A stretch of DNA of 30,682 nt, taken from the IMG/VR virus record IMGVR_UViG_2526164662_000036, one strand, 5' to 3'. This DNA is from a virus. Lineage: Duplodnaviria > Heunggongvirae > Uroviricota > Caudoviricetes. Positions 1,285 through 10,500 of this stretch are shown piece by piece (within the stretch, counting starts at the first letter, position 1; every line of letters starts with the position of its first letter). A program made the position numbers and the translations under genes. The notes under the pieces were generated by a model. The model was not told the origin of the DNA. It ran no database searches and saw only the letters and a list, made by a program, of their open reading frames with translations.

Positions 1285-1876
1285 AATTCACAGGTGTTTT
1301 TTCCCATCCTGTGGTTTCCTTGGCGTTTTCTAGGTTTTTTCAGATAGTTGCATTTTTTAAAAAGCATCCTAAGTTCGATCTCAGTGTCTATCTGGGGCCT
1401 ATTCCTGTCCCATATATGCCCCAAAAAACTCCCCAACAGATAAGTAGTTTTTTCATGGATTTACGCGTAAAATCAATAACGGCTGGAAATCATTCAATAC
1501 TCGCACTATCGAAAAATTTACCAGCCAACCGCAGCACGTTCTTGCATAAGGCGTGTCTGCGGTTTTTCAACTATTCAGATACATCACTCCCATCACATTC
1601 ATTCCTCCGCATCATAGGCTATCACCTTGATATTTTTCTTCTTCAGATAAAAACTGTTATCTATGTATACTTTTAAACCCAATCCGTGTAGAGTCTCTGC
1701 ATAAGATAGTTTGCAGTTGCCGCTTCAGCTTGCGCCATAAACCGCCTGATTTTTGCTGCCACCTGTTAGCATTCCTGTATACCTGAAACGACAATGTTTA
1801 TCTACGAACTTTAAGAACACCCAAGATAAAAATTGTCAACTATATCATATATAACACATTACTAATTCGAGGCTAT

Positions 1877-1990
1877 ATGAACAGCATTCTGATAATCACT
1901 TCTCTCCTTATCATATTCAGCATTTTTAGTCATGCCCTAATAAAATTAGGGATTGGCATATCCAATAACCCAGACAAAACCGATGTATAA
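1877..1990 (+). CDS. candidate small hydrophobic membrane protein (37 aa, [37 protein letters not shown])
   Basis: ATG preceded by GAGG about 5 nt upstream; one predicted TM helix followed by a short polar tail; below the 60-aa cutoff of the ORF track; no homology check possible. Confidence 0.3.
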
Positions 1991-2058
1991 GTCAACATAT
2001 CCTGAATCAGACATACAATATCGCAATGAAAATCAATAATATTTTAAGGAACATCTTC

Positions 2059-2292
2059 ATGAAATCAAAAGACACCCTAAAGTGGTTCCCTGCGCAGCTT
2101 CCTGAAGTAAGAATTATCCTAGGGGATGCTGTAGTGGAAGTAGCAAAACAGGGAAGACCTATCAATACCAGAACATTGCTTGATTACATTGAAGGAAACA
2201 TAAAGAAAAAATCATGGCTGGATAACAAAGAATTATTACAAACAGCGATATCAGTTCTTAAAGACAACCAAAATTTAAATGGTAAAATGTAA
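2059..2292 (+). CDS. ydfK: YdfK/YnaE-family small prophage protein (cold-shock-associated in K-12)
   Basis: ORF 2026..2292; the internal ATG at 2059 has an AGGA Shine-Dalgarno about 8 nt upstream, whereas the 2026 ATG has none; product MKSKDTLKWFPAQLPEVRIILGD... matches my recollection of YdfK/YnaE (77 aa). Confidence 0.55.
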   Translation: MKSKDTLKWFPAQLPEVRIILGDAVVEVAKQGRPINTRTLLDYIEGNIKKKSWLDNKELLQTAISVLKDNQNLNGKM

Positions 2293-2608
2293 TATAATAA
2301 ACTTACTTTTTTATCATTTTTCCACTTTAACAACATTTTGCTCCACTTTTCCACGACCAAACAACTTGAAATCTGGTTAAAATAACACGCAACACTATTC
2401 TTCTTCCTTGAGTCCGCCCGGAACTCGAAAAACAAACCGAGTTAAAGCCATTTTTCACAAAATCGATTTTGGGTCTCACCAAAATTACGGGGTTGCATAC
2501 GCATTCGTTTATTTTCGAACGTGTACATACAAATATGCACAAAAATAATCATAATTATTTTCTGAGATGCATTATGATATGAATACCAATTTCGTATAGA
2601 GTCTCACT

Positions 2609-3199
2609 ATGTCTCGAATTTTTGCTTACTGTCGGATATCAACGCTGGATCAGACCACCGAAAATCAACGCCGGGAAATCGAAAGTGCAGGTTTTAAAAT
2701 CAAACCTCAGCAAATAATCGAAGAACACATTAGCGGCTCAGCAGCAACCAGTGAGCGTCCTGGTTTTAACCGGTTGCTTGCTCGCCTGAAATGTGGTGAT
2801 CAATTGATTGTGACAAAACTGGATCGCCTTGGTTGTAATGCAATGGATATCAGGAAAACAGTGGAACAACTGACCGAAACAGGTATCAGAGTGCATTGCT
2901 TAGCATTGGGGGGCATTGACCTGACCAGTCCAACAGGAAAAATGATGATGCACGTAATTTCAGCAGTCGCTGAATTTGAACGAGACCTTTTACTTGAACG
3001 CACTCATTCCGGGATAGTAAGAGCCCGCGGCGCAGGGAAACGTTTTGGTCGACCACCTGTGTTAAATGAAGAACAGAAACAGGTGGTATTCGAACGAATT
3101 AAGTCAGGTGTAAGTATAAGTGCCATTGCCCGGGAATTCAAAACCTCACGGCAAACCATTTTAAGAGCCAAAGCAAAACTTCAGACACCTGACATATAA
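2609..3199 (+). CDS. pinQ: serine recombinase of the resolvase/invertase family, PinQ/PinR-like (196 aa)
   Basis: N-terminal catalytic motif [10 protein letters not shown] (Ser nucleophile), resolvase core, C-terminal helix-turn-helix ([11 protein letters not shown]); length and sequence fit the PinQ/PinR paralogs of K-12 cryptic prophages. Confidence 0.85.
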
Positions 3200-3296
3200 A
3201 AAATAATCTCGGTGTGAGATGCTTTACGTCTTCCAAGCCCCCTTCCTTGCCGTAAATGGAAAGATACATCTAATTATAGAATTTATATGTTTTACC

Positions 3297-3872
3297 CTAC
3301 GGCAGTGCTGGCCATTCAATATCCTGTGCAGTTGACGTATCAACACGGTTCAGCAACACCCGATACTTTTTCCAGGCTTCCAGCAATGAGGTTTCTTCCT
3401 CCGTTGCGATTTCCAGAGCTACAGCATCCTGAAGTGGCGCAATATGCTCACTGGCTACCTGCATCAGGCTGTTTTTTGTTTCTTCCGCCTCTCGGATCCG
3501 GAACAGTTTTTCTGCTTCTGCATCTTTCACCCAGGCTGTGCCGTTCCACTTCTGAAACTCCCCTTCCGGCGATAACCAGGTAACATTTTCCGGTAACGGA
3601 CCGAGTTCAGAAATAAATAACGCGTCCCCTGACGCTACGTCATAAACCGTTTTACCCCGATGGTCTTCAACGAGATGCCACGATGCCTTATCACTGTTGA
3701 AAACAGCCACAAAGCCAGCAGGAATATCTGGTGGTGCAATATCGGTACTGTTTGCTGGCAGACCTGTATGAGGCGGAATATATGCGTCACCTTCACCAAT
3801 AAATTCATTAGTTCCGGCCAGCAGATTATAAATTTTTATGGTCCGTGGTTGTTCACTCATTCTGAATACCAT
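3297..3872 (-). CDS. tfa: tail fibre assembly protein Tfa
   Basis: 191-aa ORF immediately downstream of stf with ATGA start/stop overlap; sequence resembles lambdoid Tfa chaperones. Confidence 0.8.
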
Positions 3873-6832
3873 TATGCAAGCCTCACAATATAGTTAAATG
3901 CGATGTTTTTGACGGTGTTTTCCGCGTTACCAGCAGCGTTAACGGTGATGGTGTGTCCATGTGAACCAATCGCAACGGAGTGCGTATGAGCACCAATACC
4001 GACAGTATGCGCGTGTGCACCTGCAGATGCTGCTGTGCCGGACAGTGAGTGGCTATGATTACCATCTGTACTGGTATTCGCTAACCACCCCGTAGACATA
4101 CCTACTGAGCCTTGTACACCCCAGGTATTTTGACCTGAGCTTGTATAACCATATTGATAAGTATCTTTAAAAACACTGGGGTTAAATCGACGGCCATCTC
4201 TATGGCTGTGATTACCAGCTGCATTCGTGCTGCCACTTAAACTATGGGTATGCGCACCAGTGTTATTCGTGGATTTAGTGCCGTAATCAAACGACGATGT
4301 GGTTTTCGTCCCCAAATCCGTACTGGATGCGCTGGCGCTGTGGGTATGCGATTTAATGCCGTCCTGTTCCTGAGACAATACGGCCCGACCACTGGCAGGT
4401 TTGCCCTTAATCGTCCAGCCACGCATATCAGGGATCACGCCTGACGGATAAGCCGCTGCAAGTTTCGGGTATGCAGATTTGTCAAAAGCCTGCCCCTGCA
4501 TCAGGGCATAACCAGACGGAACGGTATCTGATGGCCACGGGATTGGTGCGCCAGGCGGATAAAACTGCTCTGATGGCGTATAGAGTGAATAAACTGTACC
4601 GTCCGTTAACCCTTCCGGCTTATTAGCAGAATATGCTGGTGACGTATGAATAGTCACGCTGGCATTACTGGTATAATCCCATTGAATATTTACACCAGTC
4701 GCATAATTTCCGATTGCAACGTAAATATCGTAAGTATCACCAGATGTATTGACCCAGGCAAAATTTGTAAACCCTGTCGATGTGCGCTGCCATAAAGCAC
4801 CAGTAATCCCCTTCGGATTACCATTACCTGCACGCAAAACAAGTTCAGATATACCTGCCTGTTGAGGTGACCCCACGTTAAATCCCGCGCCACCAATCAA
4901 CGTAATTGAAACAACAGAACTCGCCTGTGGCATGGTTACCGTTGCTAATTTGAACCAACCAGCACCACCGCTGAATGACATTGTTGTTGAGTTAAGCGTA
5001 CCAATATCTTTCGGCGTCAGTGTTATATCCGCTGAAAGCGCCTTACCATTCACCTTACGGGCAGAAGGTACCCGACCATTCGCATTATCATTAGCTGCTT
5101 TCACTGCTTTCGGTGTCGCGGCAAGCGTTTCAGATGCGCTGTTGGTTGCACTACTGAGCTGGACAATTCCTTTTTGTGCTGTCGTAGCGTCCTGAGCGGT
5201 ATATTTCCCGTTAGCAAGGTCATAGGCTGCCTTTACCGACTTTGGCGTTGCCGCCAGCATTTCAGATGTGCTGTTGGTCGCGCTGCTGAGCTGAACTATC
5301 CCTTTCTGTGCTGTCGTTGCATCCTGTGCGGTGTATTTCCCGTTAGCCAGGTCATACGCGGCCTTAACGGCTTTTGGCGTTGCCGCCAGTGACTCGGAAG
5401 TGCTGTTAGTCGCACTGCTTAGCTGGACTATCCCCTTTTTCGTCGTGCTCGCATCCTCAAGCGCCACGGCGGATGCAATATCCTCTGCCCGTTTAGCTGC
5501 TGTCTCGGCGCGCGTTGCCGCGGATTCCGCCGTACTTTTGCTCTGAGCTGCCGCCGTCGCACTGCCAGCTGCCTCTGTCGCCTTCGTGGATGCCGTCGTG
5601 GCGCTGCTCTTCGCTGCTGACGCCTGTCTGGTCGCCTCATCTTTTGAAGCAGACGCCGATGATGCCGATGACGCCGCCGAACTGGCTGACGATGCGGCAG
5701 CCGTTTTTGAGGATTCTGCGCTGGTTTCCGACGCTTTCGCGTTCGTTTCGGATGTCTTCGCTGCGGATGCAGACCTCGCTGCTGCGCTGGCCTGTTCCGC
5801 GGCTTCGCCAGCCTTCGTTGTGGCTGTTGAAGCGGACGATGCAGCGCTTTCTGCCGATTTTCCGGCGGCGCTAGCACTGGCTGAGGCCTGCCCCGCACTT
5901 GTTGACGCTGCACTGGCAGACGACGCAGCCGCTGTTTTTGAGTCTGCTGCTGCGGAGGCACTCTGTTCCGCTGCCGTTTCAGAAGACTTAGCGTTCGTCT
6001 CGGACGTTTTTGCCGCCTTCGCGGAATTTCCTGCCGCCGTTGCCGAGGAAGCTGCGCTGCTGGCGCTCGAGGCTGCGTTCGTTTCTGATGATTTTGCCGC
6101 CTCTTTTGAAGCCGACGCATCCCGGGCTGAGGTGGCAGCTTCTGACGCTTTCGTGGTCGCGGTGGATGCAGAAGTGGCTGCTGATTGTTGTGACGCTGCC
6201 GCATTCGTTTCTGACGTTTTCGCCGCACCGGCACTGGTGGCCGCCGCGCTTTTTGAGGACTCTGCAGCGGCAGCACTTTTTGATGCCTCAGAGGCTTTTG
6301 CTGATGCCGTTCCTGCGCTGGAAAAAGCCTCCTGAGCCGACGAAGCGGCCTGTCCGGCTGACGTGCTGGCTGCGCGTGCTGAGCCTGCAGCATCAGTCGC
6401 ATGGGTTGCCGCCTCACGGGCTGATGTGCTGGCATCGCTGGCTGACTTCTTCGCGGCTGCCGTGTTCTGTGCCACCGCGGACGCGTTACGCGCCACCTCT
6501 TCCACCATCAGTTCAAAACGGCGCAGTGCCTCCGGCCGGACGTCATCCTCCGACATGGCACCGAGAAAATCATTCAGCGTACCGGGTTGAGAATCTTCAT
6601 ACACGGTGATGGTCCCGGCATGTGACGGCGGGAAGCCCTCCACCAACAGAATAACGCTGTACTGACCGTACTCAACGTCCATGCTGTAACGCCCGGCTTC
6701 ATCCGGATTTTCTGAGGCCAGCGTGTTCACCACCACCGTGGTACTGTTACGTTTTGCTTTCAGCTGGATTGTGCAGTTCTGTACCGGTTTTCCTGTGCCG
6801 TCTTTCAGTACACCTGAAATCTTTACTGCCAT
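3872..6832 (-). CDS. stf: side tail fibre protein Stf
   Basis: N-terminus [26 protein letters not shown] matches lambda Stf; long Ala/Ser/Thr-rich low-complexity tract; three tandem 44-aa repeats; His-rich C-terminal domain with repeated HxH motifs (GAHTHS, GNHSHS, GSHGHT). The track ORF starts at a GTG at 6838; the ATG at 6832 is the more likely start. Confidence 0.9.
5055..5445 (-). repeat. three tandem 132-bp (44-codon) in-frame repeats inside stf (third copy partial)
   Basis: Near-identical units beginning at about 5156, 5288 and 5420 on the plus strand, encoding [15 protein letters not shown](S/M)LAATPK(A/S)[21 protein letters not shown]. Confidence 0.85.
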
Positions 6833-6842
6833 ATTCACCCCA

Positions 6843-7566: not shown

Positions 7567-10500
7567 TCAACGAATACTGATACCGGAAGCCGCTTTTTTG
7601 GTCACAATCACCGTACAGTCGGTGATATTCCCTGCCCCCTGATTGCCTTTCTGGAAAATCTTAAACTCCAGAGTGACGCTACCACCACCACTAGGCATAT
7701 CAATAACTGCACTGTAACTACCGGGAATGGCCCCTTTAGTTTCTCTGGATGCGATTAATACACCGTTTTTGCGAACTTCAAAACCATAACCCGTGTATCT
7801 TGTACCTCCCGGGTTATTTCCGCTCCCCGGATCGTCATACGCTATACCGTTAAAAATAATGGGCGGAATAATAATCTGGCGGTCAAAGTTATGATCATCG
7901 CTGATGGTGACTGTAACCGTACCGTCTGGTGTTTCCGTGTTACCCCACGTACCGACTTTTTTCGGGAAGGCTTTTGATACAGCTTTAACGAAATCCCCTC
8001 TGACCTGGGTCGCCTCCAGCATGCCCTTAATCGTACAGTTCTGGTTAATCGTGACATTGTTGAGCGTTCCTGAGTTCGCATTCACACTGCCACTGATATC
8101 CGCATTTTTAGCGGTCAGCTTTCCGTCTGATGTCAGGGAAAATACCGGAGGACTGCCACCACTGGTAATGGTGGGGGCCGTCAGGCGCTTCAGGAACACG
8201 TCGTTCATGAATATCTGATTGCCCTGCGCCACAAACATCGGCGTTTCATTCCCGTTTGCCGGGTCAATAAACGCGATACGGTTAGCGGCAACCAGAAACT
8301 GGCTCAGCTTGCCTTCCTCCGTGTCCTCCATGCTGAGGCCAATACCCGCGACATAATGTTTGCCGTCTTTGGTCTGCTCAATTTTGACGCCCCACATGGC
8401 ATTCCATTTATCGTTAGCGTCCTTCCACTCTTTCGAAAACTCATCCAGTCTGCTGGCGTTATCCTCCGTCAGATCAACTTTTTCCAGCAGCTCCTTGCCG
8501 AGATGGGATTCGGTTATCTTGCCTTTGAAAAAATCCAGGTAACCTTCCGCATCATCGCTCGCCCGACCGACGGCCTCCACGAATGCCGATTTGCCAACGG
8601 TGTTCACACTGCGGATATAAAAGTAATAATCATGGCCCGGTTTGATATTGATACTGGCGGCTATCCAGTACAGCCCCGTGCCAAGGTAGCGGGCTGTGGT
8701 TTCAACCTGCCTGATATCGGTAATCCGCGTTTCCGAGAACCAGAACTCAAACTGTACCGTCGGATCATAAACCGCAAGATGCGGCGTGGCAGTTATCTGA
8801 AAATAGCCCGGCGTCAGCTCAATCCGCGACGGCGCTGCCGGGGCGGCAATCCGGAACGATACCGACGCCGGATCGCCCTGCTGTCCCCGGGCATTTACTG
8901 CCCGGACCGTCAGCGTGTAACGCCCCAGCGCCAGCTGCCTGAAGCGGTAAGTGGTTTCCGTCGTCCGGGCCGTGCTGACCAGCCGCTCACTGCCGTCATC
9001 GGCGGCCACGGTCAGGCGAAGCATAAAGCTCACACCCTTCACTACCTTCGGCGTGTCCCAGCGCGCCAGCACCTGATACTCCCCACTGTCTGCGGTGACT
9101 TCTGCGGTCAGGTGCTGCACCGCTGGCGGCGTGACACCATTCACCGTGCCGCTCTGGTCGCCGTCAAAGTGCGCTCCGTTATCCACGATGGCCTCTTTTT
9201 CCGGCACATGCTGCACGGCAGTGATGGCATACATGCCGTCGTCGTTCTCACGGATACTCACACAGCGGAACAGGCGCTGGCGCAGCGTCGGCAGCTTCAG
9301 CCCCCACACGCTGTATCCGGCAACGCCGTCAGGAACACGGCTCACTTTCACCTTCACGCCGTCGGTGACGGACTGAACCTCCACGCTGACCGGATTGCCA
9401 CTTCCGTCAACCAGGCTTATCAGCGTGGTACCGGAGGATGGCAGCGTGATTTCACGGTCGAGCGTCAGCGTCCGGGTCTGGCTGTTCACCGCCAGCACAC
9501 GCCCGCCGGTGCTGATCCACGCATAGTCATCATCACAGATTTCAATGACATCGCCCGGTACATGGCGAAGCCCTTCTGCGCCCACGCTGAAGTCCACGGT
9601 CTGCGTCTCCAGCAGCTCCGTTTTAATCAGCCACAGCCCGGCGCGGTGTGCCTCGCCCCGACTGGTACAGCCAAAGGCATCCATCTTCGTGACGTTACGA
9701 CCGTAACGGACAATGGCCTGCGTATCCTCCACAAGCTCTGTCGCCGTCTCCCAGCCGTTATTCGGGTCAATCCAGTTCACCTCAACGGCATTATGACGGT
9801 CCTTCAGGGCGCTGAAGCTGTAGCGGAACGGCGCGCCATCATCCGGCATCACCACATTACTGCGGTTATAGGTCCACACCTTATCCGATGGCCGGTCCTG
9901 CACGAACGTCAGCGTCTGCCCGTTCCATACCGGCATACAGCGCATCGCCGAGCAGAAATCACTGAGCACATCCCACGCCTTGCGCTGCGTGGTCAGGTAC
10001 GCATTACAGGTGATACGCGGTTCCGTGCCACCAAAGCCATCCGGCACCGACTGGTCGCAATTCTGGCCGATGACATACAGCGCCCATTTATCCACATCCG
10101 CCGCACCAAGACGTTTCCCCATGCCGTAGCGCGGATGGGTCAGCATATCCCACAGACACCAGGCCATGTTGTTGCTGTATGCCGGTTTTAACGTTCCGTC
10201 CCAGATACCGCTGTATTGTCGCGTCTGCGGGTTATAGTTCGACGGCACCTGCAGAATGCGCCCGCGAAGATGATAATTACGACTCACCTGCTGGCTGCCG
10301 AACTGCTCCGAATCCACCTGTACGCCGACCAGTGCCGTGTTCGGGTAGCACTGTTTCACATCGATGATTTCGGTGTATGACGACCAGAGCGTTTTGTTCT
10401 GCAGCTGGTCTGTGGTGCTGTCCGGCGTCATCCTGCGCATCCGGATATTAAACGGGCGCGGCGGCAGGTTATCCACCACCACCGAGGCCAGATACTGCGA

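Follow-up and report, generated by a model that had tools for sequence, protein, structure and literature searches.

The serine recombinase gene pinQ, which is generally taken for a DNA invertase gene, is probably the tnpR gene (cointegrate resolvase gene) of a truncated ISSba14-like transposon of the Tn3 family, which has decayed since. The gene is located in a stretch of 30,682 nucleotides (hereafter the window), which makes up the right end of a lambdoid prophage of the Qin type in Escherichia coli. The block from about position 2496 to 3242 is the right end of such a transposon and comprises a relic of the resolution site res, the tnpR gene, and the right terminal inverted repeat (Table 1). 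The block is a transposon fragment and not a complete transposon. Judged from its sequence, PinQ is probably an orphan transposon resolvase which is catalytically weak and has no cognate site in cis.

Table 1. Features of the window around pinQ and in the neighboring prophage genes
Feature	Position	Strand	Remarks
ydfJ, truncated	1–1284	−	
ynfT			between ydfJ and ydfK in the gene order
ydfK (cold-shock protein)	2059–2292	+	annotation of identical DNA in K-12 and SCU-115; left of the relic, same strand as pinQ
res subsite I relic (crossover site)	2496–2521	+	9+8+9; left half CATACGCAT, right half TTTCGAACG; in register with eight intact elements
res subsite II relic	2536–2567	+	9+14+9; halves TGCACAAAA and TTTCTGAGA; from the alignment
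tnpR promoter −10 relic and res subsite III relic	2573–2598	+	−10 at 2573–2578; subsite III at 2580–2598
pinQ, probable tnpR of a truncated transposon	2609–3199	+	196 aa; intact; Resolvase and HTH_7 domains
Codon 76, TGT (Cys), in the LDRLG-R motif	2834–2836	+	equivalent of Arg71 of Tn3/gamma-delta resolvase
Right terminal inverted repeat relic	3208–3242	+	alignment downstream of tnpR; blastn match ends at 3238; left inverted repeat matches the same stretch in reverse
tfaQ, tail-fibre assembly gene	3297–3872	−	Pfam Caudo_TAP; single copy; neighbor of the relic, not a substrate
stf, side tail-fibre gene	3872–6838	−	988 aa, intact; Pfam phage_tail_N, Phage_fiber_2, Collar; single copy, no alternative 3′ end
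lom, J, then further large ORFs	beyond stf		

The PinQ protein matches the Pfam families Resolvase (E 3.6e-36) and HTH_7 (E 3.8e-11) and differs from PinR of K-12 by one residue and from PinQ of K-12 by three. At position 115 (codon at 2951–2953) PinQ of the window has His, and Gln is found in K-12 PinQ, in K-12 PinR, and in the protein of phage Tritos; His also occupies this alignment column in Gin and PinE. We take this position to be the site of the hyperactive H106/H107 invertase mutants. Among the strains of our E. coli collection the best matches to the window are partial and 97.9–99.7% identical. Strain SCU-115 (L057, NZ_CP054368.1, 742814–745287) is 100% identical to the window, but over positions 1285–4300 only. 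In its Qin copy the portal gene abuts tfaQ and the head–tail genes are deleted, and this deletion is different from that of the window. The side tail-fibre gene of the window is overlapped by long open reading frames in other frames and on both strands (5428–6435 on the minus strand, 5586–6335 and 6010–6609 on the plus strand), which arise from the repetitive, Ala/Ser-rich central part of stf and do not represent genes.

The original prediction for this locus had started from the premise that the gene encodes an invertase as in Mu, P1, and e14, and this premise does not hold. PinQ shares with PinE of e14 and with Gin, Hin, and Cin the character of a small serine recombinase, the HTH_7 domain, and a place beside phage tail-fibre genes. 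However, its identity to PinE is only 38% by BLASTP and 40% in the multiple alignment, in which Gin reaches 39%. Members of the Hin/Gin/Cin/Pin group are roughly 60–80% identical to each other. On the contrary, TnpR proteins that are linked to transposons are 77–84% identical to PinQ (for example, 82.7%, 78.1%, and 77.3%) and carry the identical recognition helix RQTILR, which is different from that of the invertases. Among solved structures Gin is the best sequence match (109 bits), ahead of the gamma-delta resolvase with 82 bits. The Tn3/gamma-delta resolvases (1gdt, 1zr4, 5cy1) have the same fold family and domain order as PinQ and their res is of the same kind, comprising a site I of 28 bp and two accessory sites, II and III, between tnpA and tnpR genes of divergent orientation, but they match PinQ far more weakly than the transposon-linked TnpR proteins do. 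The residues Y6, R8, S10, and R68 (Tn3 numbering) are conserved in PinQ, and D36 is Glu in PinQ as well as in the transposon TnpR proteins.

Beyond the PinQ/PinR cluster of 98–99% identity, a database search gave a large number of next relatives with 70–84% identity; some 1650 plasmids from Klebsiella, Escherichia, Enterobacter, Shewanella, and other genera carry them. A divergent tnpA gene (994 aa; DUF4158 and DDE_Tnp_Tn3) lies ∼160 bp upstream of the pinQ homologue in four of the loci (L005, L006, L007, L017), of which L007 is annotated as “Tn3-like element ISSba14”, and a remnant of tnpA is present in L019. For the proteins P0014 and P0100 a divergent tnpA accompanies the homologue in 17 of the 18 places examined (9/10 for P0014, and 8/8 for P0100 with tnpA full or truncated). 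With only 29% identity between their TnpA and the transposase of Tn3, these elements form a distant subgroup. From this architecture the ISSba14-type TnpR is predicted to be a resolvase. The complete element, which has the order tnpA–res–tnpR, measures 3815 bp and is bounded by inverted repeats of more than 50 nt that begin with GGGGTCCGCTTGGAAAACGG; the repeat pair of the intact elements reads GGGGTCCGCTTGGAAAACGGAAAATATCCCACGCTAAG and onwards. When this element is compared from inverted repeat to inverted repeat with the window by blastn, a single region matches, namely 2529–3238 with 82.6% identity over 712 bp, and phage Tritos carries the same homologous block. The relic of the inverted repeat is ∼83% identical to that of the transposon (counted manually from the alignment, a 3-bp gap excluded), and the homology ends with it, 55 bp from the stop codon of tfa. 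In the window we detected neither a remnant of tnpA or other TnpA-like coding sequence nor the left inverted repeat. Since the phage block includes both res and an inverted repeat, the direction of the transfer is fixed, from the transposon to the phage.

Given this origin, the vicinity of pinQ to stf and tfa would be an accident of insertion, and there would never have been an invertible tail-fibre segment. In agreement with the original prediction, which had seen a single tfa–stf pair convergent with the recombinase gene and no invertible segment, searches of the whole window by tblastn with TfaQ, Stf, TfaE, and TfaP revealed one tfa and one stf and no second copy or fragment of either, also not in inverse orientation. 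The absence of a Hin/Gin-type crossover site, too, was confirmed and extended to all 30.7 kb. A search for inverted repeats of the pix type between 1300 and 7600 gave weak pairs only, the longest having 28 nt at 71% complementarity, with exact matches of at most 12–13 nt, and the core AAACC..GGTTT was absent from every pair in this region. The pattern AAACCNNGGTTT with up to two mismatches occurs 8 times in the window (13.7 expected from shuffled sequence, as are the following expectations) and nowhere near pinQ. The e14 half-site TTCTCCCAAACC with up to two mismatches occurs once, at 16712 (2.7 expected), and a 20-nt invertase pattern with up to three mismatches once, at 8717 (1.2 expected). 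The same procedures succeeded on e14 (L001), where the inverted-repeat search recovers the pix pair (21 nt, 95%) and the 20-nt pattern matches both pix sites with zero and one mismatch (0.34 expected). The octamer AAACCGAG at 2437–2444 appears gix-like by eye and was rejected, as an 8-mer is expected about once per 30 kb and this one has no partner and lies outside the transposon block. Genome H2, annotated with two tfa genes, in reality has one tfa which is split by IS3.

The comparison with e14 also shows where a crossover site ought to be sought. The gene order of e14 is stfP+ tfaP+ tfaE− stfE− pinE+, so that pin diverges from the segment, and pix is located ∼60 bp upstream of pin. Thus the 3′ spacer of a convergent gene is not the expected place for such a site. 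The spacer from 3200 to 3296, for which the absence of a crossover site had been noted, is indeed without one; it is not featureless, though, as it contains the inverted repeat relic. Moreover, the pin locus is collinear in all 12 loci with a PinQ of at least 98% identity and in the 2036 genomes that cover at least 80% of window positions 1285–4300. It could still be argued, from the name of the gene, its position beside stf and tfa, and the match to Gin among the solved structures, that PinQ is an invertase of the Gin/Hin/Pin type whose invertible segment and crossover sites were deleted. We consider this extremely improbable: besides the low identity to PinE and Gin, the gene is flanked by transposon relics on both sides, its orientation relative to the fibre genes is opposite to that in the invertase systems, there are neither inverted 26-bp sites nor alternative fibre cassettes or tfa/stf fragments in inverse orientation, and the fibre modules beside pin are interchangeable (see below). 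Of the options that had been considered for the gene, that of an orphan enzyme agrees with our reading, that of a resolvase-type enzyme with another role was a reasonable one, and that of action in trans corresponds to a published claim (see below).

The upstream region of pinQ retains the anatomy of res. An alignment of thirteen upstream regions (MAFFT) is free of gaps over the length of res. In the intact elements subsite I has the organization 9+8+9 and subsite II 9+14+9, subsite III lies beside a TATAAT box, and the half-sites follow the consensus TGT(C/A)CGAAA. The three subsites of the window are in register with these elements and most of their half-sites are degraded. To score them we used a position weight matrix built from eight transposon-type (non-PinQ) elements, five of them with full or remnant tnpA detected, in which each of the five scored half-sites reaches 10.8–15.8 bits and the element means are 13–15 bits. 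The half-sites of the window score −0.1 (I-left), 8.2 (I-right), 5.5 (II-left), 3.4 (II-right), and 13.1 bits (III-right) with a mean of 6.0. Thus four of five are degraded, one of these, I-right, moderately so. The homology of the left half of subsite I, which agrees with the consensus at 5/9 positions, is uncertain, and the left junction of the relic might coincide with the crossover point. In subsite II, neither half (TGCACAAAA and TTTCTGAGA) has kept the CG of the core, and the right half of subsite III, TTTCGTATA, is the only well-kept half-site. The −10 relic reads TATGAT in the window versus TATAAT in most transposon copies. From the biology of Tn3 and gamma-delta, subsite III can be read as a putative autoregulatory operator. 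The internal consistency of the half-sites is 4.9/9 in the window compared to 6.8–8.0/9 in the eight transposon-type elements, which gives no sign of a co-evolved new specificity. A scan for dimer sites found none in the window and none at the e14 locus, and it did find subsites I and II in the control elements L005 and L007.

The protein has changed as well. In the HMMER alignment to 1gdt, C76 of PinQ falls on R71. This column is Arg in 112 of 120 homologues and also in PinE and Gin; Cys is found only in the PinQ/PinR clusters and in the phage-borne protein P0009. On the DNA level codon 76 is TGT in 14 of 14 PinQ/PinR alleles checked, among them K-12 PinQ, K-12 PinR, and phage Tritos, as well as in the gene of P0009 (L034), whereas the transposon copies have CGT. 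R71 of Tn3 resolvase is one of six residues whose mutants show no detectable recombination and a cleavage that is reduced ∼1000-fold or more; the R71 mutants were described as “not inert”, and Cys was not among the substitutions assayed (PMC2794168). Cys76 is stable across two phage lineages which differ at 31 residues. This stability is more in keeping with a state that is tolerated or useful than with recent damage.

The second of these lineages, P0009, is 84% identical to PinQ and is likewise encoded next to tfa and stf. As it shares the left junction, the inverted repeat relic, and Cys76 with PinQ, a single capture appears to underlie both lineages, with the change from Arg to Cys preceding their split. 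We suggest that, in an ancestor of the lambdoid phages of the Rac/Qin/mEp460 type, an ISSba14-like transposon entered the accessory region that separates attP from the tail-fibre genes, at a point directly downstream of tfa. Of this transposon only ∼750 bp at the right end would have survived, with res, tnpR, and the terminal repeat, whereas tnpA and the left end would have been lost. After the capture the module has decayed in three ways: in the half-sites of res, by the change from CGT to TGT at the catalytic arginine, and by relaxed purifying selection. An intermediate, that is, a lambdoid phage with the complete transposon, was not found in 50,697 phage records, in which the best TnpA matches are 54–56% identical and lie on plasmid-prophages of the P1/SJ46 type.

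In contrast to the plasmid-borne elements the captured module resides between tfa and ydfK on the attP-proximal side of a lambdoid phage. In the viable phage Tritos the order is recE–xis–int–[attP side]–ydfK–pin, all on one strand, and beyond pin there is a tail-fibre module of another kind. Tritos and L008 retain only the last 36 codons of tfa beside pin, with a different fibre module beyond. As pin is linked to ydfK on the int/attP side and the fibre modules vary, pin belongs to the attP-proximal accessory region rather than to the fibre module. Together with the spacer, the final ∼36 codons of tfa stay joined to pin and the inverted repeat relic (3242–3416 in the window, 7692–7799 in L003, and 6692–6799 in L008). 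The constancy of the tfa end next to an otherwise variable fibre module places a recombination boundary inside tfa.

Purifying selection on the phage-borne gene is relaxed about four-fold, but not absent. A comparison of the two phage-borne lineages gives a dN/dS ratio of 0.36, whereas transposon copies compared with each other give 0.08 and pinQ compared with transposon copies gives 0.15–0.17. Nine PinQ/PinR alleles segregate at 5 synonymous and 6 non-synonymous sites. Since 0.36 is still below 1, some function has been retained, which counts against a pure relic. The same is true for the occurrence of an intact open reading frame in viable phages and in 2751 of 5426 complete E. coli genomes, about half of them and including K-12.

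The proteins P0003 and P0005–P0008 are graded chimeras with a transposon-type N-terminal part, including Arg76, and a PinQ-type C-terminal part, which suggests gene conversion between plasmid-borne tnpR genes and the prophage relic. Several of these proteins derive from short contigs of metagenomes and could be artefacts of assembly; P0008 is encoded on a genome contig of 5.4 Mb. On a contig of Erwinia oleae (L021, 1280–2649) two resolvase genes of the PinQ family (72% and 78% identical to PinQ) stand back to back at a distance of 204 bp, with half-site motifs on both sides. They look like two res–tnpR modules joined at or near res.

A retained function could in principle be resolution in cis. 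PinQ and the res relic would then be a working system of the phage which resolves dimers of the circular genome or tandem prophages, similar to multimer resolution of plasmids. The gene is intact in viable phages, the three subsites have kept their spacing, and there is a phage in which such a module still looks functional, judging by its site and its catalytic column. Erwinia phage LS-2018a (CP013974.1; L004, 7880–8606) carries a recombinase of the same clade (59–61% identical), also without tnpA. However, unlike the window, it has an intact and self-consistent res (7.8/9) built on a half-site of its own, TGTACTAAA, its catalytic column is occupied by Arg, and the module is situated between the terminase and portal genes. 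It represents an independent capture by a phage. In the PinQ group, on the other hand, all but one of the five scored half-sites are degraded, the sites lack self-consistency, no dimer site is detectable, the catalytic arginine is replaced, and dN/dS is four-fold above that of the transposon copies. A working cis resolution system is therefore very improbable for PinQ.

A different function has been proposed recently. According to the main text of Kirigo et al. (NAR 2025; PMC12529663), PinQ has no substrate of its own nearby and acts in trans on e14, where it inverts the P segment of 1797 bp; this inversion yields StfE2, which blocks the adsorption of T2. PinQ would thus be an active DNA invertase which recognizes the pix sites of e14. 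The experiments described there are as follows: T2 survivors with pCA24N-pinQ had the P segment inverted, the inversion determined by qPCR was 30% in the wild type and 88% upon over-production of PinQ and was lower in a pinQ deletion, and the effect was gone when stfP, stfE, or e14 was deleted. In addition, precedents of cross-action are cited, Fin on hix and Pin on gix (PMC12529663). PinE and PinQ are both reported to affect the same P segment. The same main text also states that no inversions were found in Qin or Rac by BLAST and that the P segment is locked when pinE is deleted, although pinQ and pinR are still present (PMC12529663). In view of this lock, catalysis of the inversion by PinQ itself counts as unproven. 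An assay of PinQ in a pinE-null strain, a catalytic mutant, or an in vitro assay does not appear in the main text, which also makes no mention of Tn3 or of the catalytic residues of PinQ (PMC12529663).

Our analysis is in tension with this claim, as far as sequences can speak to an activity. PinQ has Cys at the position of R71, and its recognition helix is that of the enzymes whose half-sites are TGT(C/A)CGAAA; the half-site matrix matches neither of the two pix sites and finds no dimer site in e14. A value of 88% inverted segments exceeds the equilibrium of about 50:50 that is expected for a simple invertase, which suggests selection or an indirect effect. The distribution of the two loci differs as well. 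The e14 P segment together with pinE is collinear (at least 80% cover) in 170 E. coli genomes, compared to the 2751 with the relic; in 274 records it is present at an identity of at least 99%. Strain SCU-115, whose relic is identical to ours, has an empty icd site (L056, icd 1082632–1083882) and no e14. As the relic is far more common than the P segment and exists in a strain without e14, inversion in e14 cannot be its general role. Taken together, the lock in the absence of PinE, Cys76, the resolvase ancestry, a helix matched to TGT(C/A)CGAAA, and the 88% make direct catalysis on the P segment both unproven and mechanistically unexpected, and we regard an active trans-acting invertase as unlikely.

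We rather suggest that present-day PinQ acts mainly as a DNA-binding protein with little or no recombination activity and without a usable site in cis. It would bind the remnant of its own operator, subsite III by the −10 box, and it could bind the res of related plasmid-borne transposons. Tentatively, and as one possibility only, PinQ and PinR may be naturally disabled resolvases kept by lambdoid phages as sequence-specific DNA-binding proteins. Their effect on the P segment of e14 would then be indirect and dependent on PinE, and their natural targets in trans would be ISSba14-like transposons that arrive on plasmids, at whose res sites they might repress expression of the transposase or poison the resolution of cointegrates.

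The orphan status of PinQ as such has been published, as the main text of the e14 study shows (PMC12529663), whereas its transposon origin and the change at Cys76 appear to be unreported; our literature search found no paper that links PinQ or PinR to a tnpR of the Tn3 family. Several papers on Klebsiella plasmids mention “pinR” together with Tn3-family elements and appear to use this label for such tnpR genes. This suggests that automated annotation has carried the name of the Rac gene over to its parent family, the true transposon resolvases. In fact many automated annotations bear the name “DNA invertase from lambdoid prophage Rac”, including those of true transposon resolvases on Klebsiella plasmids. 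The origin from a truncated tnpR explains the lack of an invertible segment beside pinQ and rectifies the view of which way the annotation has travelled. A transposon relic is an ordinary kind of finding; what makes this one worth noting is that it corrects a widespread annotation and poses a testable challenge to a recent mechanistic claim. That claim of 2025 is the first of a “recombinase-activated phage defence”, and the key question is whether PinQ with Cys76 inverts anything without PinE. If PinQ is catalytically dead and yet under selection, it would be an example of a recombinase that has been domesticated as a DNA-binding factor.
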